From Candidatus Saccharimonadota bacterium (lineage in GTDB: Bacteria > Patescibacteriota > Saccharimonadia > Saccharimonadales > UBA10212): 64,000 nt of DNA. The translations under genes and the position numbers were made by a program. The first letter of the stretch is position 1. Each line of letters opens with the position of its first letter. Location of the stretch: positions 302,178 through 366,177 of the forward strand of contig JACPKF010000001.1 of NCBI GenBank assembly GCA_016187125.1, written 5' to 3'. Below the pieces are notes generated by a model. The model saw only the letters and a list, made by a program, of their open reading frames with translations, made no database searches and had not been told where the DNA came from. Below are positions 1 to 62,978 of the stretch, one piece after another.

Positions 1-1404
1 AATGCCGCTACCAAAAACTTGGTTGATTTTGTTGGCGGTGTCGGGCATGAAAGGTACTAAAAGAGCCGCTATTTCTATGAGATTGGCCACAATCGTGGCC
101 AGTACCTCGCGCAGGTGAACTTCATCTTTTCCGCCAGCTGGCGGATTAGCTATTTCCCATGGCTTGGCCTCATCGATATATTGATTAAGTCCTTTGACCT
201 GTTCCCAGACTACATCTAGGGCCTTGTCAAACCGGCAGTTATCAATAGCCCGGCTGTAAGCGGCAACATCATGCTCCGGCGACGGAATATCACCGATCAA
301 ACCATTTTGATACTTAGCTATCATGGCGGCGCTGCGACTTATGGCATTGCCTAGCTGATCGGCCAGTTCATTGTTGTAGGCCGCTTCCATCATCTCCCAA
401 GTAAAATCGCCGTCACTATAACTGGGGATGTGCCTCAGGAAAAAATAGCGGAAGGCCTCAACACCGTACTTATCAACTATGTCCAGCGGGTCCACTACAT
501 TGCCTAGGGTTTTACTCATTTTTTTGCCGCCGCTGGTTACAAAGCCATGGACATAGAGCGCTTTTGGCAAAGCTAGTCCCAGTCCAAGTAGCATTCCTGG
601 CCAAACAGCCGCGTGAAAACGCAAAATATCCTTGCCGATGACCTGCATATCAGCCGGCCAATATTTTTTAAAGTCCGGATGCTCCGGATAACCGATTACG
701 CTAATGTAGTTCATCAGGGCTTCAAACCAGACGTACATAGTTTGGGTCGGGTCACCCGGTACCGCAATACCCCAACCTATCTTGTCTTTAGGGCGGCTGA
801 TGGAAATGTCTTGCAGGCCCTCGCCTATAACTGCCAGAATTTCGTTTTTTCTGGACTTTGGGATAATCCGATACTGATCTTTTTCAATCGCATCTTTGAT
901 TTTAATGGCATATTTACCGAGCGCGAAAAAATAATTTTCTTCCTGGATCTTTTCATATGGCCGATTATGCAGCGGGCAAATACCATTAGTTTCCTTTACG
1001 TAAGCTTCGGTTTTGAATTCTTCGCAGCCGACACAGTACATACCAACGTAAGCTTTTTTATAAATGTCCGCCGCTAGAGCTTTCCAGATCAGCTGGGCTC
1101 TTTGTTCGTGACCGGCGTCGGTGGTTCTGATAAAACGGTCGTTGCTAATTTCCAGTTTTTTAAGTCCTTCGCGGAACTTGGCGCTTATTTCATCGACAAA
1201 TTGTTTGGGCGGCAGGCCGGCTTTTGCTGCGGCTTCGGCAACTTTACCGCCGTGCTCGTCGGTTCCGGCACTAAAAAGTACATCATCGCCGAGCTGCCGG
1301 CGGTAACGAGCCAGCACATCGCCATATAAATGGAGCAAGGCATGGCCAAGATGCGGCTTATCATTGACATATGGAATAGCCGTAGCAATGTAGAATTTTC
1401 TCAT
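1..1404 (-). CDS. metG: methionyl-tRNA synthetase, C-terminal part cut by window edge
   Basis: Absent from the ORF track because it runs off the left edge. The minus frame from the ATG at 1404 reads MRKFYIATAIPYVNDKPHLGHALLH (class I HIGH motif). It also has a CVGCEEF...CPLH zinc knuckle and GGKKMSKTLG (KMSKS loop, about 505-535). The frame stays open to nt 1. Plus-strand ORFs 613..1077, 1102..1329 and 1121..1306 are antisense artefacts. Confidence 0.9.
   Translation of the reverse strand, partial: MRKFYIATAIPYVNDKPHLGHALLHLYGDVLARYRRQLGDDVLFSAGTDEHGGKVAEAAAKAGLPPKQFVDEISAKFREGLKKLEISNDRFIRTTDAGHEQRAQLIWKALAADIYKKAYVGMYCVGCEEFKTEAYVKETNGICPLHNRPYEKIQEENYFFALGKYAIKIKDAIEKDQYRIIPKSRKNEILAVIGEGLQDISISRPKDKIGWGIAVPGDPTQTMYVWFEALMNYISVIGYPEHPDFKKYWPADMQVIGKDILRFHAAVWPGMLLGLGLALPKALYVHGFVTSGGKKMSKTLGNVVDPLDIVDKYGVEAFRYFFLRHIPSYSDGDFTWEMMEAAYNNELADQLGNAISRSAAMIAKYQNGLIGDIPSPEHDVAAYSRAIDNCRFDKALDVVWEQVKGLNQYIDEAKPWEIANPPAGGKDEVHLREVLATIVANLIEIAALLVPFMPDTANKINQVFGSGI
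130..145. repeat. F3 palindrome TCCGCCAGCTGGCGGA (inside metG)
   Basis: Exact 16-mer, translated as NPPAGG on the minus strand. Confidence 0.9.
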
Positions 1405-4153: not shown

Positions 4154-4516
4154 AAAACCTCAAAAATAAAAACGGGACTGTTGTAGTCCGGTTCCTCTTA
4201 ATTGCAATTTGTACTTTTTGGCCAAGCGCGGAACTACAGCATTTTCTCGTCGAGGACAAGAATAATTCTGCTTAGTTCAAGCTTGCGCACCATGGCAACA
4301 ATACTACATCCTAGATAACAGCAATACAAGCTTAATTGGCAAGAAAAATAATTCCCAATACCAGAGCCAGCCCCAAAAGCCCGGTAACAATAATTCCCGA
4401 CCTACCCATAACAGTTCTACTATACACGCAAAAGGATCTTGCAAAAAGTTGCTCACCTCTGTTATACTATTCTCAGTACCTTGAGTTATTACAATCATTC
4501 CCTCTTTGCAGCTTAA

Positions 4517-4631
4517 CAATTTTGTGAAAACACGCATTGCAGGTTTTTACAAAATTGAGAGGAGAAGCATAGCGCTAAGTTGAAGCTTTTGCCCCATAGG
4601 CAAAACAAGACAGGCGCGTAGGCTTCGACGA
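4517..4631 (+). promoter_or_regulatory. stable-RNA promoter/leader cassette (copy upstream of tmRNA)
   Basis: CAATTTTGTGAAAA-N-TTTTTACAAAATTGAGAGGAGAAGCATAGCGCTAAG, then hairpin TTTTGCC-ccat-aGGCAAAA, then GGCGCGTAGGCTTCGACGA immediately before GGGGCTGA. Confidence 0.65.
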
Positions 4632-5227
4632 GGGGCTGAATTTAAGCTCGACGTTGGACTTTAACAACTAGTTTGCAGGTCGTGCGCACTGAACGTGGGA
4701 CCTACCACAGGGTGTTTTGTCAGGGCCGAAATTGAAACAATTTCGAGCGAAACAGGTTTTTTCGATTGAAGCGTAGCTAAGGCTTACGTTGAATGAGAAA
4801 AAACCGGTTGCAGCCGAAACTTGGACAATTTTTAGGCGACTAAATACCGTGTGGTAGGCCCCTAATCCGGTGCAAACCCAACAAATGCAATAGCATTTAT
4901 TTCGGGATTCGGTCTTTTGGCCGCGTTCCGAGCGCGAATTTTGGGCCTTTTCGAAGGTTTTAAATTCGCACCAGCTTACGCCTGAGGGCCTAAGCCACGC
5001 TTACCACGACATCAGATAGTGGCTGCGGCGTGTCATATTATCTGGTTGCGCAGGTTTTTCTTTCCATAAAATCTGTTAAGTTTTAGGAATAGGAGACGCG
5101 ACTTTTTGGCCATTTACCGGCCGTGTTTCCGAACTAGGACGTAAGTCCTATCCTAAATGGCCTAAACCTGTAGACGACTAGTTGAATAATCCGACGGACG
5201 TGGGTGTGATACCCACCAGCTCCACCA
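4632..5227 (+). ncRNA. ssrA: tmRNA (ssrA), unusually long (~596 nt)
   Basis: The 5' end GGGGCTGAATTTAAGCTCGACG and the 3' end GGACGTGGGTGTGATACCCACCAGCTCCACCA form the tRNA-Ala-like acceptor/T-arm. An internal open frame (4866..4982) ends ...GFKFAPAYA followed by TGA at 4983-4985, which is a plausible tag. The resume codon could not be fixed. Confidence 0.85.
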
Positions 5228-5468: not shown

Positions 5469-5726
5469 ATGCACTATGTTTACGTGCTTCAATCAGAACT
5501 AACAGCGGGCTTTTATATAGGATACTCTCTCGACCCGGAACAAAGACTGGTTGGTCATAATTCGGGCAAAAATATATCGACAAAAGCGGGGTGTCCGTGG
5601 AGATTAATATATTTTGAAGCTTATACGGATAAACGTGATGCTCTTAGCCGCGAGAAATTTTTGAAAAGCGGAAGTGGCAGAATTTATCTGCATAAACAAC
5701 TTCGGCATTTTCTGGACACTCCCTAA
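5469..5726 (+). CDS. GIY-YIG domain nuclease family protein (short, stand-alone)
   Basis: Starting at the internal Met: MHYVYVLQSELTAGFYIGYSLDPEQRLVGHNSG...PWRLIYFEAY...ALSREKFLKSGSG. This matches the small GIY-YIG family pattern. Confidence 0.75.
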   Translation: MHYVYVLQSELTAGFYIGYSLDPEQRLVGHNSGKNISTKAGCPWRLIYFEAYTDKRDALSREKFLKSGSGRIYLHKQLRHFLDTP

Positions 5727-18040: not shown

Positions 18041-18432
18041 AACTCCGCGGGCTTGCCAACCAGGGCTTTTGAAATCCATGGTGATCCCTGGCAGAATTCG
18101 ACCCACGCGTCAAAAACCTTGGGTTTTTGCGTTCGGGCCCGGCTTACGGTTTACTTAGTTTATGGAGCCCCCACGGCTGAAAGCCGTGGCACCTCCAATT
18201 ACCCTCCTTCGTCCGCCGGCTGGCGGACTACGGAAGGTTATCCGCCAGCCCTCAACCAGTTGATAGACTTTCCTTAGCGACATCCGCTCAAAGCCTAAGA
18301 CCGCGCATTCAACCACGGCTAAAGCCGTGGTCCTCTGCGAAGGCGGATAAACATCGCTCCGGCTGTTCGATACCCTTAGTAGCTACTAGCGAATTCAAAA
18401 AGCCCACCTCAACGGTGAACTTATCGAATGTG
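18041..18432. repeat. GC-rich cluster of palindromic units (BIME-like)
   Basis: Contains ACGCGTCAAAAACC/GGTTTTTGCGT, CCACGGCTGAAAGCCGTGG (18171-18189), TCCGCCGGCTGGCGGA (18212-18227) and CCACGGCTAAAGCCGTGG (18313-18330). Confidence 0.75.
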
Positions 18433-18508: not shown

Positions 18509-18551
18509 GTCTTGCGACTATTTTATCCTATCATAAGGAGTTGACACCTGT

Positions 18552-18578
18552 CTGCTACAAGGATTATCCTTGTAGCAG
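18552..18578. repeat. REP family F1 palindrome, left flank of RAYT-1
   Basis: CTGCTACAAGGATTATCCTTGTAGCAG ends on the base before the ATG at 18579. Confidence 0.9.
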
Positions 18579-19208
18579 ATGCCGCTAAAAAATGTCGTTA
18601 AGGAGTTTGTGGCTGAAAGCTACTACCATGTTTACAATCGTGGTGTCTATAAACAGAATATTTTTACCCAGGAAAGAGACTATACTGCCTTTTTAAGTCT
18701 TCCTAAACGACATCTATCTAGAGAACCAGCTCAAGATCACACTAGGCGACCACTCCCTCATTTACGTAATGATGTGGAATTATTAGCATATTGCCTAATG
18801 CCAAGCCACTTTCATCTCCTTATATACAACAAAAAAGAGTCTGGTCTGACCGACCTGATGAGAAGCATGATGACAGCCTATAGCAGATACTTTAACAAAA
18901 CCCATAAACGAAAAGGCGCCCTGTTTGAGTCGTCATATAAGGCTAGCTTGATTGATAATGAAGCTTACCTATGGCATATCAGCCGTTATATTCACCTTAA
19001 TCCTCAAGACCTAGGCTCCAAATATATTTCTTACCCCTACTCTAGTTATGCTTATTACATGGGTAATAAAAAAGCCGAATGGATTAACCCAGAAAGAATA
19101 TTAAAGATGCATGGCGACGAATTGAGTGATTATGCGAGTTTTGTAAAGGATTACGAATCAATGCGCGCTGAGCTCCAGCAACTTAAACTTTATCTAGCAG
19201 ACCACTAG
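18579..19208 (+). mobile_element. IS200/RAYT-type HUH-Y1 transposase-like protein (RAYT-1)
   Basis: 209 aa: YYHVYNRGVYKQNIF..RDY..FL, LAYCLMPSHFHLLIY (HUH), FESSYKASLID, SRYIHLNPQDLG (Tyr region). Flanked on both sides by the F1 palindrome. Confidence 0.8.
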
Positions 19209-19251
19209 TTGCTACAAGGATTATCCTTGTAGCAATTGTAGCAACTAGTGG
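19202..19251. repeat. REP family F1 palindrome, right flank of RAYT-1 (nested hairpins)
   Basis: GCTACAAGGATTATCCTTGTAGC at 19211-19233 sits within CCACTAGTTGCTACA ... TGTAGCAACTAGTGG. Confidence 0.9.
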
Positions 19252-20820: not shown

Positions 20821-22722
20821 TTATGGTGAGGGCGGGATTTGACTAGGGGGTTGCTTTGGAGCTGGTTGTTCAGGTGCAGGGGCTGGGGCTGGGGCTGGTG
20901 CGGGTGCGGGTGCGGGTGCGGGAGTTTGGGGAGTTTGGGGAGTCTGAGGAGTTTGGGGAGTTTGGGGAGTCTGAGGAGTTTGGGGAGTTTGGGGAGTCTG
21001 AGGAGTTTGGGGAGTCTGAGGAGTTTGGGGAGTTTGGGGAGTTTGGGGAGTCTGAGGAGTTTGGGGAGTTTGGGGAGTCTGAGATGGGGCGGGAGCAAGT
21101 TGAGTAGGGGTCTCTGCAGGAGGAGCAGGTTTAGCGGCCGCCTCGCCAACTTGGAATTTTGCTACACATTCAGCCAGTCCTTCCACAGGTACAACGGATC
21201 CGTCATGGAGCCTAAATACGGCTCTGCCGTCATTGATAGCGTTAGCATATTTATGGCTGATGCCTTGCAATTGCAATTTTCCAGCCTCGGTTGAAGGATC
21301 AATCCTGACCGACTGACCATCACCAAAGTCAAGAATGATTTCCGGTTTTTTGACATTATTGAACTCGTTAGTTCTGAGGCTGAATGTGATTTCTTTTTGT
21401 CCGGTCGCAGCTGCTTCCGCAGCAGTACACTTGGCTGTCGCAGCAGGACTCGGGGTAGGCCCTGGTTTGGGAGTAGGTGCCGGTTTAGGTTTCGGTTGCG
21501 GCTTGGGTTTGGGAGTAGGTGCCGGTTTAGGTGGCTTAACCTCTTTTTCAACGTTTTTGAGTTCTACTGTAAGATCAACAGTTTTTGGATTAGAGTCGCC
21601 GTGTATGTTCAGATACACTAAGTGGGGATTTTTCTCATCGTAGTCCGGCAAATCAGTTTCATCAATAACTAATCTTGAGCCGTCTGGACAAGATGGACCT
21701 CTCTGAGGGTTTCTGAGTATTTTAACTAGCTTGTCTAAGATAAGTACGCCGTTTCTATAGCATCTTTCACGTGCTGAAAATACACCACTAGGCGCTGGTA
21801 TTGGAAACTCACGAGTAGTCACCAATGTTTTGTGAAATTCAGGAGTAACAGGAGCGGGCACCTTGGCGGCTGGACCTTGTGGACCGGGTTTGCCCTGTTT
21901 ACCCTGTGGGCCAGTTTTGCCAGCTGGACCCTGTGGGCCAGGTTTGCCAGCTGGACCTTGTGGACCGGGTTTGCCCTGTTTACCCTGTGGGCCAGTTTTG
22001 CCAGCTGGACCCTGTGGGCCAGGTTTGCCTGAAGGGCCAGGTTTGCCTGGAGGACCCTGTGGGCCAGATTTGCCGGGTGCAGAAGGGGTTTGTGTTTTTT
22101 TGACAGGAACGTAGACCCATACAGGGACTTCTTTGCCTGTCCGTGGATTTGAACTCTCATCACTAGCACCCTCGCCGACAATTCTTTCAACTCTTTTGGA
22201 GCCTTCACGAGGGGTAAGAGAAAAACCTTCAGGAAACTCTCCTTTCAAGGAATCGATTCTAACCCATTCTGTAGAACCATCTGGCAGAGTTTTGTTACCA
22301 ACCGGTACAATCTTGCCATCCTTACAGCCTGTGTTTTGAACTACGGCACCACCAGCAAGGGTAGCCCGGCCGAAATGATTTTTTACATATCCTAGTACAG
22401 ACTCATCAACGGTTGGAATTTTATAGAATCTCACGACATCATCTAAAATACCTTTTTGCCGCCAGTGATTAACTAAAATTTCTGCCGTCGGTGCAAAGCC
22501 GCCGCAACGATCAGCCAAGAGACTAGGCGTAGCTTCTTTCAAAGGAGCGGCTTCAGCATTGCCGCTAAATTTGCCAACACCTGCTATAGTAGCAACGGCT
22601 GCTAGCCCACTAGCCATAAACATCGCTAGCTTACCTCTGCGGTCGGGAGTGGCTGTCGGTTCAGTCTCAAAAGCAGGAACCAGAGTTAAGACTGGTGCAG
22701 CTTCCATAGTAGGATGATTCAC
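20821..22722 (-). CDS. secreted collagen-like / TPQ-repeat surface protein
   Basis: 633 aa with a GTG start 10 nt after AGAGGA. It has 23 uninterrupted G-X-Y triplets, PKPxP tracts, DFGDGQS (PKD-like), 18 TPQ repeats and a (PA)n tract. Confidence 0.8.
20923..21084. repeat. 18 tandem 9-bp repeats (AGTTTGGGG / AGTCTGAGG) encoding (TPQ)18
   Basis: Counted directly. The two unit variants are interspersed. Hexamer repeats GGGGCT/GGTGCG (about 20877-20922) lie adjacent. Confidence 0.95.
21868..22074. repeat. collagen-like G-X-Y coding repeat (23 triplets)
   Basis: [69 protein letters not shown]. It contains an internal duplication of about 63 nt. Confidence 0.9.
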
Positions 22723-23008: not shown

Positions 23009-23056
23009 TGTGATAGCTTGTGATAGGTTGAACCTATCACAAGACCTATCACAAAT
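23009..23056. repeat. REP family F2 palindrome, flank of RAYT-2 (stop side)
   Basis: TGTGATAGCTTGTGATAGGTTGAACCTATCACAAGACCTATCACA, with the core at 23020-23040. It overlaps the RAYT-2 stop codon. Confidence 0.9.
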
Positions 23057-23669
23057 CATTAGCTAACTGATGCTTAAGCACAGCCAGTTCAGCTTTTGTC
23101 TCAACATAATCATCTAAGAATTGTTGATATTCCAAGGAGTTATTACTAAATAAGCTCAGAATAGGCTCTGGATTTACCCACGTAGTTTTTTTAATGCCCA
23201 TGTAAACCGGATAGCTTGAATATGGCCAGTGTTTGTAATCATTAGGATTGAGATGTATGTAGCGTGATATATGATGCAGATAAGCATCTGCGTCAATCCG
23301 AGAAGCTCTGTACACACCTTGAAAGAGACCGCCCACTCTTTGGTATCGGTTGTTGAAATACATAACGTAACCTGTATTAACACGTCGCATTAGTTCTATA
23401 ATGGCCGACTCTGATGACTGATAAAAAAGCAGGTGTAGGTGGTTGGGCATCAGACAATATGCCAGCAGCTTAAGCTCGCTTTGAAAATTCTTAAAAATAT
23501 GTCTGTTTTGTTTGTTAGTAGATTCCCCTGATAAGTATTTCTTCAGGAGCCCCAGAAAAATAATGTAGTCCTGCTCGTCAGTAAAAATTACCCGCTTTTC
23601 TATACCTCGATTGTAAACATGGTAATAACTATCCGGCGCAAACTCTCTAACAACATTTCTACTTGGCAT
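23049..23669 (-). mobile_element. IS200/RAYT-type HUH-Y1 transposase-like protein (RAYT-2)
   Basis: The start is taken at MPSRNVV (ATG 23669); the track GTG start lies inside the palindrome. Motifs: YYHVYNRGIEKRVIF, LAYCLMPNHLHLLFY (HUH), SRYIHLNPNDYK. Confidence 0.8.
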
Positions 23670-23690
23670 GTGATAGGTTAAACCTATCAC
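23670..23690. repeat. REP family F2 palindrome, flank of RAYT-2 (start side)
   Basis: GTGATAGGTTAAACCTATCAC lies immediately adjacent to the ATG at 23669. Confidence 0.9.
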
Positions 23691-23729
23691 AAAATAGGCT
23701 GGCTGTCATTTATGAGTTAGAGCAATTTT

Positions 23730-23767
23730 CCATGTGATAGATGTGATAGGTTTAACCTATCACATGG
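23730..23767. repeat. REP family F2 palindrome (second start-side copy)
   Basis: CCATGTGATAGATGTGATAGGTTTAACCTATCACATGG, with the core at 23743-23763. Confidence 0.9.
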
Positions 23768-27078: not shown

Positions 27079-27194
27079 TCGTTGCGACTTACGCGCCTAC
27101 CTCGTTTTACATAATCAGTAAAAACTTCAGTCTAGCGCTACGAGTGCTCCTCTCAATTTTGCAAAAACCTGCACTGCGTGTTTTTGCAAAATCG
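27079..27194 (-). promoter_or_regulatory. stable-RNA promoter/leader cassette (tRNA-Lys copy)
   Basis: In gene orientation: CGATTTTGCAAAAACACGCAGTGCAGGTTTTTGCAAAATTGAGAGGAGCACTCGTAGCGCTAGACTGAAG, hairpin TTTTAC-tgattat-GTAAAA, then GGCGCGTAAGTCGCAACGA. It differs from the 58571..58686 copy by about 1 nt over about 105 nt. Confidence 0.7.
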
Positions 27195-27260
27195 TTTAGC
27201 TGCAAAGCCATCAAATACTAGCACGTTCACCCCTGTTTTGTGAAGCATTATGTACAAAAT

Positions 27261-36882: not shown

Positions 36883-37827
36883 TCAGTTTTTAGCGCTGGC
36901 TGCAGGTTTTTGAATCTTTTGTAGAGCTAGCTTTTTAGCGTCTTTGGCAATCAAGTAAATAGTGCCTGTTAGTAACAGCGCCCCAAAAATCTGCGAGGTA
37001 GTGAGGCCTTGATGCAACCAGACGTAACCGACAAAGACGGCCGAGGCCGGCCAAGCCAGTTCTAAAACCGCAGCCCGTGAAGCCAAAACTCGCTTCAAGC
37101 CAAAATAGTAAATCATTAGTGCTACTAAACCAGTAGAAAAAGTAATGGCCGCGATGTATTTGAATTGACTAAAAGTTAGAGCGCCTAACGAGCCAGTACT
37201 GCCCGATAAAACCACAAACAACAGGGCGAAAATAGGTGTAATCCCAAAGCGGGCGGCCGTGATGTGCAGCGATGAAGTATCTTTTAGAGCATACCGGGAA
37301 AAGGCCGTGGAAACGCCCCAGCTAGCCGCTGCTCCTACGGCAAACAAAGCGGCTATGAGCGTTCCCTTACCCGTGGATAGGTTCACGCTCAGGTCCGGGA
37401 AGGAAACCAAGTAAGCTCCTAAAAGAGCAACTGCGGACAAGCCAAAAAACTTTTTAGTTAAAGGTTCATGAAGCAATGCGGCAGCGGCGCCAATCGCAAA
37501 GATTGGATTGAGCTGTTGCAGTAGCACCACGACCGAGAACGGAATGAAATTAATTCGGCCCAGAGCCGCGGTATAAAGGATTGTGCCAACGGCGCCCGAC
37601 AAAAACGACACGCCGATAATTGCCAGCCATTGTTTACGGGTAAGTTTTTTAAAAGCCCTGTAAGAAGCAATGATAATTGGCGCTAGTAGTACAACCCCAA
37701 AAACATGCTCCCAAAAAACTATTACCGGTGCCGGCAGACTATATAAATGTCGGCGCAACAGGCCGTCCAAGCTCCAAAGAAGCGCGGCCAAAACCACAGC
37801 ACCAGAACCATACTTAATATATTTCAT
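36883..37827 (-). CDS. EamA/DMT superfamily transporter
   Basis: 314 aa, about 10 TM helices, duplicated EamA-like halves. Confidence 0.75.
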   Translation of the reverse strand: MKYIKYGSGAVVLAALLWSLDGLLRRHLYSLPAPVIVFWEHVFGVVLLAPIIIASYRAFKKLTRKQWLAIIGVSFLSGAVGTILYTAALGRINFIPFSVVVLLQQLNPIFAIGAAAALLHEPLTKKFFGLSAVALLGAYLVSFPDLSVNLSTGKGTLIAALFAVGAAASWGVSTAFSRYALKDTSSLHITAARFGITPIFALLFVVLSGSTGSLGALTFSQFKYIAAITFSTGLVALMIYYFGLKRVLASRAAVLELAWPASAVFVGYVWLHQGLTTSQIFGALLLTGTIYLIAKDAKKLALQKIQKPAASAKN

Positions 37828-38199
37828 CGAGTATCCTTTCTGTCCTTTTCAAGACACCCCCTACCTTTTCAGATAAGAAGTCCCGACTATACGGTCGGCG
37901 CATGAGTTTCACATGCTCGTCCCCACCCAATTTGTTGAATCAAATTGGGAAACCCAAATTTCATAAATCTGGGTGGGGTTGATGACTATCACATCCGATT
38001 GGCGAATTTCACGCCACCCTGGAAATTTAATTGTGAATATATTTATCTTACCACGCCACGCTTTAGTTTGTTGCGACGTGGTACGGCTTTACGAAGCCGC
38101 TAGAACTTACTTTATAGCAATAGGTATTCCCTCCACATCTGCACTTCAGGATTCAGTGCGGGGCAGGCCTCCGACCCTTTGTTCCGATCCCGCACCTTT

Positions 38200-44799: not shown

Positions 44800-45090
44800 T
44801 CATCCTTCGCCAGCCCAGGATTTGCTCCTGCTTAATTCTACTAACTTACTCCCGTCTCTATTGGTTAAAGCTTGCTTCTTAGCTTTTGACCAACCCTTGA
44901 GTTGCCGCTCTCTGTTCTCGGCATCAACTCATGTATTGAACTTTTCACTATAAACGTACTCAATTTTAGAATATCTTTTTGTATGTAACGATTGTTTATT
45001 CTGATACTGTGAAACACGTCGCCCTAAATTATCAGTCAGCCCAATATAATAGCTTTGATCGTTACAAAGAAGAATATATATGTAAAACAT
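44800..45090 (-). pseudogene. GIY-YIG family gene with one in-frame TGA
   Basis: MFYIYILLCNDQSYYIGLTDNLGRRVSQYQNKQSLHTKRYSKIEYVYSEKFNT*VDAENRERQLKGWSKAKKQAL... The stop is at 44929-44931. Not in the track because it is split. Confidence 0.7.
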
Positions 45091-46132: not shown

Positions 46133-46153
46133 TGGTACCCCAGGAGGGATTCG
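46133..46153 (-). other. duplicated 3' end of tRNA-Arg(TCT) (21 nt exact)
   Basis: TGGTACCCCAGGAGGGATTCG is identical to 46351-46371, followed by a further CCCCC match after a 2-nt gap. Confidence 0.85.
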
Positions 46154-46217
46154 CCCCCCAAGTATTTCTCCTGACGGGAAAATCTCGCGGGCCGCGGCTC
46201 GCGGTCTTCGCCTTTCG

Positions 46218-46233
46218 TCCGCCAGCTGGCGGA
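46218..46233. repeat. F3 palindrome TCCGCCAGCTGGCGGA (intergenic)
   Basis: Exact 16-mer. The flanking AATCC matches the metG and tsaB copies. Confidence 0.9.
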
Positions 46234-46350
46234 TTCCAACTCAGACAACGCTGCGCCCGTTCGAATCCCACGCAACTGAAGCAGTTCAGTTGCTTCCAGC
46301 CATGAACAATCCTCCATAGCTAAGTCCATAAAGGACTTTGCGACGGAGGA

Positions 46351-46426
46351 TGGTACCCCAGGAGGGATTCGAACCCCCGACCTTGACGTTAGAACCGTCT
46401 TGCTCTATCCACTGAGCTACTGGGGC
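46351..46426 (-). tRNA. tRNA-Arg (anticodon TCT), CCA encoded
   Basis: The reverse complement is GCCCCAGTAGCTCAGTGGATAGAGCAAGACGGTTCTAACGTCAAGGTCGGGGGTTCGAATCCCTCCTGGGGTACCA. Confidence 0.88.
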
Positions 46427-49382: not shown

Positions 49383-51599
49383 ATGAACTTATTTAGTAAA
49401 CTTCCGCTGATCGCTAAAATGGCAGCGGTGATATTGCCATTGGCAACTTTAACCGCCGTTATTGCGGGAGCCGGTGTTTCTACTTATAACAACCATAGAC
49501 CTCTTAAAGTAGCAACTATCGTGACTCCAAGTAACCCAACTGAAATTCTTGGGGACACTACGTATATGCCATCGCCTGAATATACAATGCCAACAACTTG
49601 CCCAGCGCCCTATACCGGCACACCGCCCAACTGCCAACCGCCAGCCGGTAGTACAAGTACTCCACCGCCGACTAGTACCACTCCACCGCCGACTAGTACC
49701 ACTTCACCGCCGACTAGTACCACTCCACCGGCCAGCAGCACCACTTCACCATCTGGTAGCACCATGCCAACATCTTGTCCAGCGCCCTATACCGGCACAC
49801 CGCCCAACTGCCAACCGCCAGCCGGATCAACTACATCACCATCCGGAAATAGTTATCCTTCTACCTGTCCACCGCCAGCTACTGGCACACCGCCCAACTG
49901 CCAACCGCCAGCCGGTAGTACAAGTACTGGAGGAGCACCTAGCAGTAGCCCAACGTCAGGTGGCGGCAACTCCCAACAATATGGAAGTCAGCCCAGTGGC
50001 TCGGGCAGCACACCAATAGCGCCGCCAACTCTGACAGTAAATAATCCATCATCTTGTATCCAGTCGGTGCTTGGATCGGATGCAGCCAATAGATTCCAAT
50101 CTGGAAATTTCGCTCCGACACCGGATCAAATTGCCAAGGCTCAGAGCTGCTTTAGCGCTCAGGTAAATTACGGCCCGCCCCCGTCTGGTTCTCAAGCCAG
50201 GAGTGGTCAGGGCTCAAGCGGTTCAAACAGCTCGTCTGGTTTCCAAGGCGGGCCAAACTCTCAGCAGGCATTCGCTAACATCGCCATAGCTCCGCCACCA
50301 GCCTTTCAAGCCGATTCGCCGATGTTGACCTGCGCTAAATCAATAGTTGGCGACCGTTTTGGTAGTCAGCCAACCCCCGAGCAAATGGCCCAAATCCAAT
50401 CTAAGTGTTTCGCTGCCGCTACATCTGGTCAACAGATCGGTTTTATTGATCCTAGCGGCCAAAACCGAGGCGGTCCGCTGCCGGGCGTGGCGTTGGCTAG
50501 CGGCGGGCCCAACGGACAGTCTGGACAACCGGGCTCCCCACCGGCCATGCCTCCCGAAATCAAAGCCTGCGTGCTTAAAGCCGGCATGAGTGAAACCGAT
50601 ATTAACGCTATCCAGCGCGGTCAATCGCCGACTGCTGCCCAACAAGCTCAAGGCGAAAGCTGTTTTAGCGCTTACGCTAAAGAAAAAGGCTACACGCCGC
50701 CAACCCTAACACCGCCCGATCCGACCCAACCGTTTGATCCAAATAGTAAGCAGAACCAGTGTGCCGATTTAGTTGCCCAAACCCACGGCATTAGGTTTAA
50801 CCAGATGAATCCAGGGATTGTCTCCTCCTGGAGCGCCGATGACGTCGGTAAACTACGCAGCTGCTACGGCGTAGCACCGGCCGGATCGGCTAGCAGTAAC
50901 AGCGTGGCCTTCGCGCCAACTAGCCCGCAGGTTGCCATTTCTAGCTCAAAACTGACCTGCATGCAAACAGCCCTTGGCGCTGACAAAATAGCCGCGGTTG
51001 TGGCTGGAACTGCCAATATTAGTGACGCTGACCGTAAGAATGTTTACGATAAATGTATCAACCCGACTAAAATTGCCGCAGGAGCTAATCCGGCGCTGCT
51101 TGGAGTGCTGGCCGCTATGCCACCATCTGAGCTGGAAAGCCAGTTTATCCCAGTAGACTCCCAAACCTTGCCGACTCCCACAGCCTCTAACGTTAACCAA
51201 GGCTCAAACGGTGAAGTAACCGTTGGCGGTGAGGTTATAGTGGCCGCCGGCGCAACACTGCCCACAAAAGTTGACATCTTTGTTAAATCCACGCCGCAAA
51301 CCTATACGGTCTCCTTGAAGAAAATCAGTGCCACCAAGGCTACCTGGACAGTCAACATTGCTCAAAACAAACTACCTCTGGGTAACCACAAAGCTTACGC
51401 CGTAGCTACTTTGGCTGATGCCACGCAGTTGCGCAGCCCCGAAGCTAAATTCGCCATCGCGGCTTTTAAAGCTGCTAAAAGCCGCTTACCAGTGGTTATT
51501 GAAGGAACAGCCGTCGGACTAGCCGTCATTGTCGGCGGTTGGGCTGGCTGGCGTTGGCACAACAAGAAATCGCTGCTACCTTGGCGCCCCCAACACTAA
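49383..51599 (+). CDS. large secreted Pro/Ser/Thr-rich protein with Cys-containing repeat modules and C-terminal TM anchor
   Basis: 738 aa with a signal/TM at the N-terminus. It has 3 modules of CP(A/P)P(Y)TGTPPNCQPPAGST (the 32-nt exact repeat GGCACACCGCCCAACTGCCAACCGCCAGCCGG occurs 3 times, at 49617-49648, 49794-49825 and 49884-49915) and a C-terminal TM GLAVIVGGWAGW. Confidence 0.75.
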   Translation: MNLFSKLPLIAKMAAVILPLATLTAVIAGAGVSTYNNHRPLKVATIVTPSNPTEILGDTTYMPSPEYTMPTTCPAPYTGTPPNCQPPAGSTSTPPPTSTTPPPTSTTSPPTSTTPPASSTTSPSGSTMPTSCPAPYTGTPPNCQPPAGSTTSPSGNSYPSTCPPPATGTPPNCQPPAGSTSTGGAPSSSPTSGGGNSQQYGSQPSGSGSTPIAPPTLTVNNPSSCIQSVLGSDAANRFQSGNFAPTPDQIAKAQSCFSAQVNYGPPPSGSQARSGQGSSGSNSSSGFQGGPNSQQAFANIAIAPPPAFQADSPMLTCAKSIVGDRFGSQPTPEQMAQIQSKCFAAATSGQQIGFIDPSGQNRGGPLPGVALASGGPNGQSGQPGSPPAMPPEIKACVLKAGMSETDINAIQRGQSPTAAQQAQGESCFSAYAKEKGYTPPTLTPPDPTQPFDPNSKQNQCADLVAQTHGIRFNQMNPGIVSSWSADDVGKLRSCYGVAPAGSASSNSVAFAPTSPQVAISSSKLTCMQTALGADKIAAVVAGTANISDADRKNVYDKCINPTKIAAGANPALLGVLAAMPPSELESQFIPVDSQTLPTPTASNVNQGSNGEVTVGGEVIVAAGATLPTKVDIFVKSTPQTYTVSLKKISATKATWTVNIAQNKLPLGNHKAYAVATLADATQLRSPEAKFAIAAFKAAKSRLPVVIEGTAVGLAVIVGGWAGWRWHNKKSLLPWRPQH

Positions 51600-51658
51600 G
51601 CAAAACCTCTAGTTTCATCTGTTAAACAGTGCTATAATCACCTCTGCTACTGAATACC

Positions 51659-51773
51659 AATTTTGTGAAGTTGTGCATTGCAATACTTCGCGAAATTGAG
51701 AGGAGAAGCATAGCTATAAGCCGAAGCTTTTGCCACTATTGGCAAAACTAGGCAATAGTGCAAGTTTCGACGT
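51659..51773 (+). promoter_or_regulatory. stable-RNA promoter/leader cassette (tRNA-His copy)
   Basis: AATTTTGTGAAG-N-CGCGAAATTGAGAGGAGAAGCATAGCTATAAG, hairpin TTTTGCCA-ctat-TGGCAAAA, then GTTTCGACGT before the tRNA. Confidence 0.65.
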
Positions 51774-51849
51774 GGTGCCTGTGGCTTAGTGGTTAAAGCG
51801 CCGCTCTGTGGAGGCGGATACGAGAGTTCAATTCTCTTCAGGCACCCCA
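51774..51849 (+). tRNA. tRNA-His (anticodon GTG) with encoded G-1 and CCA
   Basis: G-GTGCCTGTGGCTTAGTGGTTAAAGCGCCGCTCTGTGGAGGCGGATACGAGAGTTCAATTCTCTTCAGGCACCCCA. Confidence 0.88.
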
Positions 51850-53374: not shown

Positions 53375-53415
53375 TTTACTCCTATTTGTTAAAATCAGCC
53401 TGGTGTCTGATTAAC

Positions 53416-53530
53416 AATTTTGCAAGGTCGTGCGTAGCAGACTCTTGTAAAATTGAGAGGAGAGGCATAGCGTTAGGTCGAAGCTTTTGGCGATGTAGCC
53501 AAAACGAGACTTACGCGCAGGCTTCGACGA
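53416..53530 (+). promoter_or_regulatory. stable-RNA promoter/leader cassette (tRNA-Pro CGG copy)
   Basis: AATTTTGCAAGG-N-CTTGTAAAATTGAGAGGAGAGGCATAGCGTTAGG, hairpin TTTTGGC-gatgta-GCCAAAA, then GCGCAGGCTTCGACGA before the tRNA. Confidence 0.65.
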
Positions 53531-53607
53531 CGGAGCGTGGCGCAGCTTGGTAGCGCGCATCGTTCGGGACGATGAGGTCGCCGGTTCAAATCCGGCCGCT
53601 CCGACCA
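53531..53607 (+). tRNA. tRNA-Pro (anticodon CGG), CCA encoded
   Basis: CGGAGCGTGGCGCAGCTTGGTAGCGCGCATCGTTCGGGACGATGAGGTCGCCGGTTCAAATCCGGCCGCTCCGACCA. Confidence 0.9.
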
Positions 53608-56354: not shown

Positions 56355-57146
56355 ATGACTGAAGTAATCAGTAGATATGAACAAGGCTTACTAGATAGAT
56401 GCCCAGCTGATCGCGTAGTTGAGGTAGGCCGGGATTTACCCGAAATCGTCCCCAATAGACTTCAGCACCTGCGCCGAACTGCCGTCGCCAGCGGTTGTTT
56501 GATCCTCGCCTCGTTAGGCTTGGTAGCGGCAAATGCTCGGTCAAGTAGCGAACGGCGCCCGGCGTACACCCCGGCACCCCCCGCCATACAAGCTGATTTT
56601 CCGGTACCAGTCCGGTGTTATAAAACAGATTCCGATTTCTACCTTGCTGAAGGCATAGATCCTAACAAACTTATTTTTGAGACACCTGGACTATTAGCAG
56701 GTTTTTATAGATATCCATATGAAACTCCAATCGCTGAAAATCCAATCGTTGGTTTTAGCCCTGGAGAGTGTACCGCTTTAGAAAAGATTAAGAGAGCGGT
56801 CCCTATGTATCCCGAAGACGCAGCAGCAGCCGAATATATTAAAATTCATGAACTGCAGCATGCCACCACCGATATAGATAGAATAGTAGATCCAGTTTAC
56901 GGTGGCGATTTTGAGGGTCAGGCGGACTGCCAAACAGCCAAGACATATTCCGAGTATCTTTACCGGGATGGTTTCCGGGGGCACCGTGTATTTAACTTGT
57001 TAACCTTCCTAGCTCAGCGTAATACCGGATACGATCCACAAAAAACTCGACACTGCTGGCCCGTGTGGCTGACTAAAGATCCTGATCCTGCTTTGATGGT
57101 GGAGAGTGTCGCCATCATAGTCAAGCCCGATCCTGAGTTTAAGTAG
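56355..57146 (+). CDS. hypothetical membrane-anchored protein with HExxH motif
   Basis: 263 aa. TM segment VASGCLILASLGLVAA; IHELQHA (HExxH). Confidence 0.5.
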   Translation: MTEVISRYEQGLLDRCPADRVVEVGRDLPEIVPNRLQHLRRTAVASGCLILASLGLVAANARSSSERRPAYTPAPPAIQADFPVPVRCYKTDSDFYLAEGIDPNKLIFETPGLLAGFYRYPYETPIAENPIVGFSPGECTALEKIKRAVPMYPEDAAAAEYIKIHELQHATTDIDRIVDPVYGGDFEGQADCQTAKTYSEYLYRDGFRGHRVFNLLTFLAQRNTGYDPQKTRHCWPVWLTKDPDPALMVESVAIIVKPDPEFK

Positions 57147-57342
57147 CCAACCCCTATTTTATACTGGCACTATTTTACAATCTAAATGGTCGAGATTTAC
57201 AGAGAAGTTAGAACTGCTTTCTGCAAGCTTAACCTTTAACCGAGCTTCAGTCGCGCCGCCTTCCACCTGCGCCAAGGCTTCGGCGGACAGATCGGCGGCG
57301 CTCCAGCAGCTCGGCACGGCGCACCTCGCCCGCCGTGCCTCC

Positions 57343-57358
57343 TCCGCCAGCTGGCGGA
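57343..57358. repeat. F3 palindrome TCCGCCAGCTGGCGGA (intergenic)
   Basis: Exact 16-mer in a GC-rich spacer. Confidence 0.9.
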
Positions 57359-57407
57359 TATTTTTTGCCCGCGCGATTTTTGCAAGTTGTTAGTGAAGCT
57401 GTATTTT

Positions 57408-57671
57408 TTATGTATCGAACTCGCTGGCGAGTCTCGTAACTAAACGAACAGTTGGTGGTACGATAGCTTGCATTACAACAGCTTCGGCCGGTGTCTCGAC
57501 TACTTTTCTGGAATATACATGACGGTCAAATGGGTATGGAAAACTGATTCTAGTAAGTTTATCAACAGCTTGCTGTCCTAGATTCTCGACAAGGGCAGCT
57601 CGACACTCTTCTGGTGTCAAGCCTTCACAAAGCTCTGCCGCCGCATCCATTAACTCAAAGCGGTCCATCAT
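57408..57671 (-). CDS. hypothetical protein (87 aa)
   Basis: Second gene of a two-gene unit, with a 4-nt ATGA-type overlap with 57668..58198. Confidence 0.5.
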   Translation of the reverse strand: MMDRFELMDAAAELCEGLTPEECRAALVENLGQQAVDKLTRISFPYPFDRHVYSRKVVETPAEAVVMQAIVPPTVRLVTRLASEFDT

Positions 57672-58493: not shown

Positions 58494-58570
58494 TGGTCGG
58501 GGATGCCAGATTTGAACTGGCGACCTCCGCGTCCCAAACGCGGCGCGCTACCAGACTGTGCTAATCCCCG
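58494..58570 (-). tRNA. tRNA-Pro (anticodon TGG), CCA encoded
   Basis: The reverse complement is CGGGGATTAGCACAGTCTGGTAGCGCGCCGCGTTTGGGACGCGGAGGTCGCCAGTTCAAATCTGGCATCCCCGACCA. Confidence 0.9.
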
Positions 58571-58686
58571 TCGTCGTGACTTACGCGCCTACCTCGTTTT
58601 ACATAATCAGTAAAAGCTTCAGTCTAGCGCTACGAGTGCTCCTCTCAATTTTGCAAAAACCTGCACTGCGTGTTTTTGCAAAATTG
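58571..58686 (-). promoter_or_regulatory. stable-RNA promoter/leader cassette (tRNA-Pro TGG copy)
   Basis: Nearly identical to 27079..27194 (1 mismatch seen in the shared ~105 nt). Confidence 0.7.
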
Positions 58687-58710
58687 GAAATAAACCAAAT
58701 AACAGACTAA

Positions 58711-61309: not shown

Positions 61310-61434
61310 CCTGTCCTCCTACGTGCTAGCCGCGTCGGTTTTGAGCGTTCACTATCACTTCTTTAGCTAAAACCAGGTGCGGCTATTATTCGTTCAAAAT
61401 TAATATAAGATGGATTGTTCCCAGCCCACCGAAG

Positions 61435-61450
61435 TCCGCCGGCTGGCGGA
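61435..61450. repeat. F3 variant TCCGCCGGCTGGCGGA in a longer hairpin
   Basis: CCCACCGAAGTCCGCCGGCTGGCGGACGAAGGTGGG. The same variant occurs at 18212-18227. Confidence 0.85.
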
Positions 61451-61610
61451 CGAAGGTGGGCAAAACACCAGAAAATCCTACTTATAATATACCTGCCTGG
61501 GCCTGAATTGGTCAATTACGGAATTTAAGACATGGACCCAAGAAGACTGCAGGCGTTAAATATTCCCTGAAGCTAGTCCCGATGATCAAAAATGATAAGC
61601 TAGACAAAGA

Positions 61611-62474: not shown

Positions 62475-62978
62475 TTATTTTTTGGGTTTAGTTATATTTG
62501 GCGGCGAGCCATATGCAGGTACAGCGATTTTGTCTCCGCCAGCTGGCGGATTGCCGGCAAGTAAATCTTCAATCCCTTCCTGTATCCAACCTTGGCCTCT
62601 ACGCGCGACTATCGGAATATGGTTGGCAGAAGCCAAGGCATTGGCGACAGTCAGGCCAATCCGCAGGCCTGTAAAACTGCCCGGGCCTTTGAAGCAAACG
62701 ATTCCCTGGATATCATTCCAACAAACATTTGATTTGTTAAGTAATCTCTTAATTTGGGAATGAATAGTCTTGGATAACTCCAGATGGGCTTGCCATTTAA
62801 GCTGGCCGAGCTTTTTTTTGTCGTCATTGTGAAAGGTCCGTCCTTTCACACTATATAAATACAGCTCGGCCTGATGCTTATCGGTCCTAATTCCTAAGAT
62901 AGCTGTGCCCCGCTCCTTTTCAGGGTGGAGCAGTCGGTAATCAGATTGTGGAACACCTTGAAAAGGTGCGCGGGTCAT
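62475..62978 (-). CDS. tsaB: tRNA t6A biosynthesis protein TsaB (N-terminal domain type)
   Basis: KGPGSFTGLRIGLTVANALA. The ATG at 62978 overlaps the tsaE stop (ATGA). The first ~24 codons are encoded by an F5 repeat, and the C-terminus contains the F3 palindrome. Confidence 0.8.
   Translation of the reverse strand: MTRAPFQGVPQSDYRLLHPEKERGTAILGIRTDKHQAELYLYSVKGRTFHNDDKKKLGQLKWQAHLELSKTIHSQIKRLLNKSNVCWNDIQGIVCFKGPGSFTGLRIGLTVANALASANHIPIVARRGQGWIQEGIEDLLAGNPPAGGDKIAVPAYGSPPNITKPKK
62535..62550. repeat. F3 palindrome TCCGCCAGCTGGCGGA (inside tsaB)
   Basis: Exact 16-mer, translated as NPPAGG on the minus strand. Confidence 0.9.
62908..62974. repeat. structured repeat family F5 (copy 5) inside the tsaB 5' end
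   Basis: CCCCGCTCCTTTTCAGG-GTGGAGCAGTCGGTAATCAGATTGTGGAAC-ACCTTGAAAAGGTGCGCGGG. Confidence 0.7.

Follow-up and report, generated by a model that had tools for sequence, protein, structure and literature searches.

A perfect 16-nt palindrome, TCCGCCAGCTGGCGGA, recurs across a 64,000-nt stretch of a Candidatus Saccharimonadota genome (GenBank assembly GCA_016187125.1, contig JACPKF010000001.1, positions 302,178 to 366,177; hereafter the window). The 16-mer is probably the commonest of a group of very short, GC-rich hairpin repeats that have been added secondarily, as selfish or neutral DNA resembling repetitive extragenic palindromes (REPs) and Rickettsia palindromic elements (RPEs). Two of its six copies in the window lie in frame within the genes for methionyl-tRNA synthetase (MetRS, metG) and TsaB, and alignment with orthologues shows both to be secondary insertions with a net gain of 12 nt (4 codons) at a loop. 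Comparison across relatives further shows that inserted copies decay afterwards and that the same hot spots repeatedly hold copies in separate lineages. Many non-coding copies are shown to occupy hairpin loops that were already present, in REP-like elements, in terminators and in truncated copies of tRNAs. Loci compared with the window are denoted by L numbers.

Exact matches occur at 130–145, 46218–46233, 57343–57358 and 62535–62550, whereas 100 dinucleotide shuffles gave none, and allowing up to two mismatches adds only 18212–18227 and 61435–61450, both of which hold the one-base variant TCCGCCGGCTGGCGGA (six copies in total, against a shuffle mean of 0.03). The original prediction had listed these six positions (four exact, two with the variant centre), held that they exceed chance and placed the two variants within longer hairpins; the pattern scan, the shuffles and the hairpin analysis bear it out on each point. 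The 16-mer comprises two abutted 8-nt inverted halves and nothing else, with a stem of TCCGCC/GGCGGA and a centre that is mostly AGCT or GGCT. In a window with a GC content of 45.8%, the family provides 6 of the 18 GC-rich hairpins with a 6-bp stem, at a density of 6 per 64 kb, or 1 per 10.7 kb. It does contain CAGCTG, as had been pointed out, although the 31 CAGCTG sites in the window show that this hexamer is not avoided and rule out restriction avoidance. The MetRS and TsaB proteins of the window match, with full identity, those of a Candidatus Saccharibacteria MAG, where they are encoded on a 397-kb contig. The same copies are present in independent assemblies from three sequencing runs (L001–L003) and in metagenome-assembled genomes (MAGs) from NCBI. 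Rfam searches of the whole window and of the region around 46218, at the gathering threshold and at permissive E-values, placed no family on any 16-mer copy, and we found no description of the 16-mer in the literature searched. The four window copies that can be oriented all lie on the minus strand, in a window whose GC skew is negative along its whole length; n = 4 is too few to establish a replication strand bias.

Both coding copies lie on the minus strand and extend to the 18-mer AATCCGCCAGCTGGCGGA, which is read as AAT CCG CCA GCT GGC GGA, or NPPAGG, in the same frame in both open reading frames (ORFs), as originally predicted. One (130–147, minus strand) lies in MetRS between the conserved KPWEIA and DEVHLREVL (...KPWEIA-NPPAGG-KDEVHL), and the other (62535–62552, minus strand) lies in the TsaB ORF at 62475–62978 (minus strand; TsaD/TsaB-family Pfam match), where the context is ...DLLAG-NPPAGG-DKIA. 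Only 2 of 120 MetRS relatives contain PPAGG, with one further decayed copy, as do 3 of 120 TsaB relatives; the motif, suspected from the outset of being an insertion in these two genes, is thus lineage-restricted and not a conserved feature. In both alignments most orthologues are four residues shorter exactly at the NPPAGG position.

In MetRS, nearly all of the 120 relatives read KPWEIA-KTK/KTG-DEEHL where the window reads KPWEIA-NPPAGGK-DEVHL. At the DNA level, the empty site of L124 (GCC AAA ACT AAG GAC) aligned to the window (GCT AAT CCG CCA GCT GGC GGA AAA GAT) puts the 16-mer in place of about 4 nt (GCC AA-AACT-AAG GAC becoming GCT AA-16-mer-AAA GAT), for a net gain of 12 nt. TsaB orthologues read DLLAGK-NDKIA, the filled form (DLLAG-NPPAGG-DKIA) being found in the window, L129 and L130; here the empty site of L131 (GGC AAA AAA GAC) differs from the filled one (GGC AAT CCG CCA GCT GGC GGA GAC), again by a net 12 nt. 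As L131, empty in TsaB, and L125, filled in MetRS, come from the same genome, site occupancy differs within one genome. At both sites, a few scattered lineages are filled, others carry decayed copies and most are empty, and in a neighbour-joining tree of MetRS built with the loop left out, every bearer has an insert-free sister. The MetRS gene of L127 has the decayed copy AGTCCGCCAGGTGGCGGA, and the variants NPPTGG and HPLDSG are found among TsaB relatives; the 7-residue loops of other MetRS clades (NPKSGTR, NPTAGEI, SPKKGEA and KPAAAGG) look like older, decayed copies of the 16-mer.

The inserted sequence is identical between bearers that have otherwise diverged. MetRS of L125 (82% protein identity) carries an identical 18-mer, whereas neighbouring synonymous sites differ. 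Codons for the same amino acid are identical between bearers in only 47–53% of cases, and because of this background the finding of six identical insert codons out of six has P of about 0.01–0.02 per pair. Such codon identity despite divergence points to either independent recent insertion or constraint at the nucleotide level. A recombination tract that moved the insert between lineages was rejected, as synonymous differences in the flanks extend to the very edge of the 18-mer. In an AlphaFold2 model of the window TsaB (mean predicted local distance difference test score, pLDDT, of 80), a helix at residues 131–140 ends before the insert and PPAGG (144–148) is in coil with pLDDT below 50; the insert is predicted to lie in an exposed coil.

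A non-coding hot spot upstream of the gene for RNase Y exists in three states: empty, filled by a different 16-nt palindrome, or filled by the 16-mer. L131 is empty (TTTTG followed by GGATTATCC), L129 and L130 hold the other palindrome, GGTCGCCT(A/C)GGCGACC, and the window reads CCCAC-CTTCG-[16-mer]-CTTCG-GTGGG. The window copy (61424–61461, plus strand; G variant at 61435–61450) lies inside GCCCAC-CGAAG-[16-mer]-CGAAG-GTGGGC and is bordered on both sides by the 5-nt direct repeat CGAAG (CTTCG on the aligned strand). The arrangement looks like insertion of the 16-mer into the loop of a small, older hairpin of the UUCG type, with the 5-nt direct repeats on either side of it. The alternative occupant belongs to a second family of GC-rich palindromes of 16–17 nt, GGTCGCC-N2–3-GGCGACC, found at 9688–9704 in the window, at 4238 in L129 and at 3179 in L130; this family fills the RNase Y hot spot in relatives where the window holds the 16-mer.

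The remaining window copies are all non-coding. The TCCGCCGGCTGGCGGA copy at 18212–18227 forms the apex of a longer imperfect hairpin (18206–18237, plus strand; ccttcg...ctacggaagg) in an intergenic region with a small proline-rich ORF on one side and tRNA-Glu on the other; it is followed by a solo half-site, ATCCGCCAGCC, at 18240–18250, and shares 35 nt at 86% identity, in inverted orientation, with the copy upstream of RNase Y. Two near-identical hairpins, CCACGGCT(G)AAAGCCGTGG, at 18171–18189 and 18313–18330, bracket the non-coding stretch in which this copy lies; neither matched an Rfam family. A search for split palindromes, on the idea of a MITE (a miniature transposable element with inverted repeats) that holds an internal insert, returned a candidate pair at 18241/18342; a second pair, 11653/11768, was rejected as merely the LAD and IRRL codons of a UvrD-like helicase. 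The copy at 46218–46235 (minus strand) is an exact 18-mer in a 190-nt non-coding stretch, flanked by tRNA-Arg(tct) (46351–46426, minus strand) and by a 27-nt duplicate of the 3′ end of that tRNA (46133–46160), a setting that resembles the tRNA-fragment contexts of L104, L091, L098 and L109. The duplicate is a near-copy located 190 nt downstream of the gene, with one 16-mer copy between the two, an arrangement reminiscent of the attL/attR pair that a lost integrated element would leave. We rejected the idea that the 46218 copy is part of a transfer-messenger RNA (tmRNA), as the Rfam searches gave no family there. The fourth exact copy (57343–57366, plus strand) is followed by TATTTTTT and in form resembles an intrinsic terminator, with the ORF at 56355–57146 (plus strand) ending about 200 nt upstream and a second hairpin preceding it. 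It is the sole terminator-like site called in 57100–57500, and the T-run is absent at the other five window copies.

Analysis of the flanks of 102 copies shows an A at −1 or a T at +1 in 77 and both together in 13, so that the oriented consensus is RA-16-mer-[C/G]AA, the A being confined to one side; the unit or the insertion event is therefore oriented. Direct repeats of at least 3 nt (3–5 nt) flank 7 of the 102 copies, compared with about 3.6 expected, and there are two 5-nt cases compared with none expected. Longer hairpins are capped by 19 of the 102 copies (5.2 expected), usually through tandem G·A mismatches. Many of these capping copies form the apex of CGTCAT-NNN-GA[16-mer]GA-NNN-ATC hairpins, found in Bacteroidota, in gammaproteobacterial MAGs and in some members of the candidate phyla radiation; the lower stem of these hairpins covaries, and they belong to the CGTC-tagged REP superfamily. 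The GTAG tag is absent from the oriented flank consensus, and the CGTC arm is confined to a subset of the copies in other phyla.

Truncated tRNA copies in which a loop is replaced by the 16-mer were found in L109, L091 and L098. In Longitalea, the anticodon loop is exchanged for the repeat in two truncated tandem copies of tRNA-Gly; L091 has a partial tRNA-Lys copy in which 8 nt are replaced by the repeat, and L098 has two 5′ fragments of tRNA-Asn with the repeat in place of the D-loop. In L221 (1837–2000; the same locus as L042), tandem tRNA-Met-derived units follow the real tRNA on its downstream side, with anticodon-like and T-like arms that both have a GGCGGA/TCCGCC stem. Relative to its neighbour, one of these units carries an extra 22-nt segment comprising TTCATATCCGCCGGCT and a repeated GGCGGA, which amounts to a filled and an empty site within one locus.

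To determine how far the 16-mer extends beyond this genome, we scanned one genome per species. Among the matches listed (at least 120 loci), 36 are from Patescibacteria of many classes and 28 from Bacteroidota, and the rest include Elusimicrobia, Cloacimonadota and others; the cultured isolates Mucilaginibacter flavidus and Longitalea luteola (both Bacteroidota) are among the carriers. In high-GC genomes, the 16-mer encodes [VILF]R[QR]LA[ED] in long ORFs and its occurrence there is, judged from this codon pattern, a matter of chance. In low-GC genomes, the xPPAGG frame is used in 29 of the 44 ORFs that span a copy (with N as the first residue in 13), and the hosts in other Patescibacteria include CysRS, MetK, RecJ, GdhA, TsaD, TopA, PNPase, PheT and RpoD, the last of which carries two copies. 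The coding copies that survive are shown to add a multiple of three bases, to sit in surface loops and to be read in the harmless (N)PPAGG frame. Viral contigs gave eight matches to the 18-mer, compared with one, none and none for three composition-matched control palindromes.

The stem is retained where the loop is not. A set of loci totalling 464 kb, none fetched by the 16-mer scan, contains TCCGCC/GGCGGA with other loops (TTT, TAA, TAT and others) 15 times, compared with about 0.6 expected by a rough hand estimate from window hexamer frequencies; four of the five AGCT copies in this set are in loci that were fetched for an insert-bearing protein. L115 carries TCCGCC-TTC-GGTGGA, a change compatible with G-U pairing, and in the variant in the MnmA gene of L125 the centre has changed from AGCT to GGCC, a paired change that keeps the symmetry.

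We looked to two classes of enzyme as candidate mobilisers. The window encodes two IS200-like Y1 proteins that resemble REP-associated tyrosine transposases (RAYTs), at 18579–19208 (plus strand) and 23049–23690 (minus strand), which are 50% identical. Each gene has a palindrome of its own on both sides, GCTACAAGGATTATCCTTGTAGC (with GTAG in it) and TGTGATAGGTTAAACCTATCACA, and neither is flanked by the 16-mer. The resulting units, 18550–19233 and 23018–23764, look like REPtrons, with solo copies of their palindromes at 8956, 27927, 48618 and 14129. Among 80 metagenome loci around RAYT relatives (321 kb), we found one exact 16-mer copy, no RAYT flanked by it and no RAYT flanked by a hairpin of the same stem. 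Mobilisation by a RAYT was accordingly negative, both by tblastn on all loci and in the 80 metagenome RAYT loci, and the REP/RAYT picture implied by the original prediction is not sustained. Its statement that no cognate transposase is visible holds in that no such gene is flanked by the motif, and needs amending in that two RAYT-like genes, one GIY-YIG gene and one pseudogene are present.

The window also contains a small GIY-YIG gene (5469–5726, plus strand) and a frameshifted GIY-YIG pseudogene (44866–45090, minus strand), neither of which is flanked by the 16-mer. In seven motif-selected loci, however, no more than about 170 nt separates a 16-mer copy from a GIY-YIG gene or remnant (L098 and L042, with copies on both sides of the gene, L104, L050, L065 and L088, and a remnant in L091), compared with 0.2–0.3 expected by a rough estimate from one GIY-YIG gene in about 430 kb of unselected loci. 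GIY-YIG cassettes occur in or beside tRNA and tmRNA genes, create partial tRNA duplicates and form a very large family; the link to the 16-mer is statistical and may be indirect. Across phyla, small GIY-YIG genes adjoin or lie within tRNA and tmRNA genes (L230, L232, L201, L233 and L098), with the ORF inside the D-loop of a tRNA in L232 and L201, and tRNA-Asn is the cassette target in Wolfebacteria, Doudnabacteria and Ignavibacteria. The 3′ end of a tmRNA-like region lies about 240 nt upstream of the intact window gene, and L230 has the same synteny.

Taken together, we favour, with some confidence, a REP-like hairpin micro-repeat whose copies are inserted, later decay and in some cases are co-opted. 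Insertion would occur in trans, by a structure-specific nuclease or recombinase acting on single-stranded hairpin loops or A-rich sites, and the best lead for such an enzyme would be the small (~85-amino-acid) GIY-YIG nuclease cassettes nested in tRNA and tmRNA genes. More tentatively, Patescibacteria and some Bacteroidota may possess an unrecognised insertion system in which a nuclease acting in trans, possibly the ~85-amino-acid GIY-YIG protein, writes a fixed 16-nt hairpin into single-stranded DNA loops and A-rich hot spots. Several points weigh against the insertion of a mobile repeat. No mobilising enzyme has been demonstrated, and 16 bases is, to our knowledge, less than the length of any element known to transpose. 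No target-site duplication recurs consistently among the 102 copies, and the coding sites have none. Density is modest (6 per 64 kb here compared with 0–1 per 20 kb in relatives), and the apex singletons in other phyla may in part be coincidental, given how many hairpins 596 Gb contains. As the neighbour-joining trees were built without bootstrapping, one old insertion followed by several losses would formally fit them. Moreover, the 16-mer is absent from all eight GIY-YIG genes that were chosen blind to the motif (the two in the window and those in L115, L201, L230, L231, L232 and L233), and the GIY-YIG association may arise only through pseudo-tRNA fragments in which the repeat is tolerated.

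The alternatives differ in what they take the palindrome to be for. If it were a functional double-stranded site under selection, bound by a dimeric protein (for example, a DNA-uptake signal recognised by the competence and pilus systems of Patescibacteria, or a chromosome-organisation site similar to parS or the Noc-binding site, NBS) and tolerated within genes whose proteins permit it, then its perfect symmetry up to the centre, the paired AGCT to GGCC change in the MnmA gene of L125, the 18 nt that are identical between orthologues despite diverged synonymous sites, and its occurrence in coding and intergenic DNA across the whole superphylum would all be accounted for; uptake sequences and parS sites, too, may lie inside genes. 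We nonetheless regard this as unlikely, given that copies originate as 12-nt insertions and not by point mutation, decay freely in many lineages and occupy different sites in close relatives, at a density that is low and uneven (down to one copy in the 321 kb of RAYT loci). Stems with unrelated 3-nt loops also suit a hairpin better than a duplex site, and the motif is embedded in REP-like elements of unrelated phyla. A classical REP, or a REPIN (REP doublet forming a hairpin), moved by a cognate motif-flanked RAYT (IS200-like Y1 HUH) encoded elsewhere in the genome, appears distinctly unlikely. This genome does use such a system, with two RAYT-like genes that have palindrome families and solo copies of their own, and the oriented, one-sided flank suits cleavage of single-stranded DNA beside a hairpin. 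REP-like repeats are also reported to span phyla and sometimes to lie within genes (PMC3733652). However, neither window RAYT is flanked by the motif, none of the 80 loci of RAYT relatives is flanked by it or by a hairpin of the same stem, the 16-mer is perfect, has no GTAG tag and is only 16 nt long where REPs are imperfect and span 20–40 nt, and one-third of the window copies are in coding sequence.

Selection could instead act on RNA, with a stem–loop that serves as a terminator or as a stability or processing signal spreading because it is useful. The copy at 57343 is a textbook stem and T-run, loops vary while the stem is kept, the change in L115 is compatible with G-U pairing and many copies cap longer hairpins. 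Against this, a T-run occurs at only one of the six window copies, two copies are in essential ORFs where termination would be harmful, the self-complementary AGCT centre would have to stay unpaired in the hairpin, and no copy matches Rfam; we consider an RNA element very improbable as the general explanation. That the copies merely reflect chance, codon usage or errors in sequencing or assembly is hardly credible. In high-GC genomes, the 16-mer is merely a string of [VILF]R[QR]LA[ED] codons, but shuffles of the 46%-GC window give none, control palindromes are rare, the coding copies preserve the reading frame, identical copies recur in the assemblies of the three runs (L001–L003) and in NCBI MAGs, and the motif is present in cultured isolates. 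For low-GC genomes, chance and artefact are effectively refuted.

Several other features of the window were recorded. Five RNA genes (the tmRNA-like region, tRNA-His, two tRNA-Pro and tRNA-Lys) are each immediately preceded by a conserved element of about 120 nt, at 4514–4634, 51655–51776, 53412–53533, 27147–27207 (minus strand) and 58567–58691 (minus strand); within this element is the inverted repeat CAATTTTG...CAAAATTG, and it probably serves these genes as a common promoter or processing module. The tmRNA-like region (4615–5227) scores only 23 bits in Rfam (5019–5227; gathering threshold 47) and is not called by ARAGORN here, although its homologue in L230 is; the gene may be unusually long or interrupted. 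A match to the FMN riboswitch at 37861–38030 (minus strand), upstream of the ORF at 36883–37827, is below threshold (48.7 bits compared with a gathering threshold of 66.2; E = 5 × 10−8). Two ORFs are built of tandem repeats, one at 20821–22722 (minus strand; 9-nt and 27-nt units), which is glycine- and proline-rich and collagen-like, and one at 49383–51599 (plus strand; 21-nt and 65-nt units), which is rich in threonine and proline; together they explain part of the excess of CCAGCTGG in the window.

If the 16-mer is an inserted repeat, it would be minimal selfish DNA, a 16-nt unit without room for the ends to which a transposase binds, and its recurrence at the same codon in independent lineages and across phyla would require a mechanism as yet undescribed. 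If, beyond this, a nuclease acting in trans writes it, it would be the smallest mobile DNA unit known, and the same 4-codon PPAGG loop would have been added repeatedly to essential proteins such as aminoacyl-tRNA synthetases, TopA, RecJ, PNPase and RpoD. Insertion in itself would explain a class of small loop insertions in the core proteins of ultra-small bacteria, supply a sequence marker for recent DNA turnover in unculturable genomes and offer a concrete substrate on which to test RAYTs and the very abundant small GIY-YIG nucleases, for which we came across no described function. For annotation, the 16-mer should be expected to split or extend ORFs and to mimic terminators.

The closest parallels are with known families of dispersed palindromes. 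REPs and REPINs are likewise short, GC-rich, dispersed hairpins with a conserved stem and a variable loop, some of which act as terminators and which decay; they differ from the 16-mer in being 20–40 nt long and imperfect instead of 16 nt and perfect, in carrying GTAG, in having a cognate RAYT, which we did not find for the 16-mer, and in being extragenic, whereas two of the six window copies are in frame. The identical 16-mer sequence is, in addition, common to several phyla. The CGTC-tagged REP superfamily, which includes dRS3 of Neisseria (Di Nocera et al. 2013, PMC3733652), resembles the 16-mer in that the latter forms the apex of CGTC hairpins in other taxa, and no dedicated transposase is known for this superfamily either. 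The window copies differ from it in having no CGTC arm, and that paper contains neither GGCGGA nor TCCGCC, the 16-mer not being among its published consensus sequences.

RPEs and in-frame MITEs, such as those of Coxiella, share with the 16-mer their palindromic form, their in-frame position in housekeeping genes at tolerant surface loops, their occurrence in RNA-gene contexts and their later decay. RPEs are, however, about 100–150 bp in length and confined to one genus, whereas the 16-mer adds a net four codons and is found in Patescibacteria and beyond; Rfam and the literature searched gave no homologue of the 16–18-nt unit among RPE families. The GC clusters of yeast mitochondria and the PstI palindromes of Neurospora are organellar elements of 30–50 bp that insert into genes (var1 and rRNA) and intergenic DNA and co-occur with genes for GIY-YIG and LAGLIDADG endonucleases. 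They resemble the 16-mer as small GC-rich palindromes in an AT-richer genome, and differ from it in being organellar, in their greater length and in their unrelated sequence. The cyanobacterial highly iterated palindrome HIP1 and the DNA uptake sequences DUS and USS are over-represented short motifs that are likewise found both within and outside coding sequence and favour one reading frame; HIP1 and USS owe their origin to point mutation and drive and reach about 1 per kb, whereas the 16-mer arises by insertion and reaches at most about 1 per 10 kb. Overall, it is by its size, its perfect symmetry, its recurrent in-frame insertion into essential genes and its spread across phyla that the 16-mer sets itself apart from REPs and RPEs.

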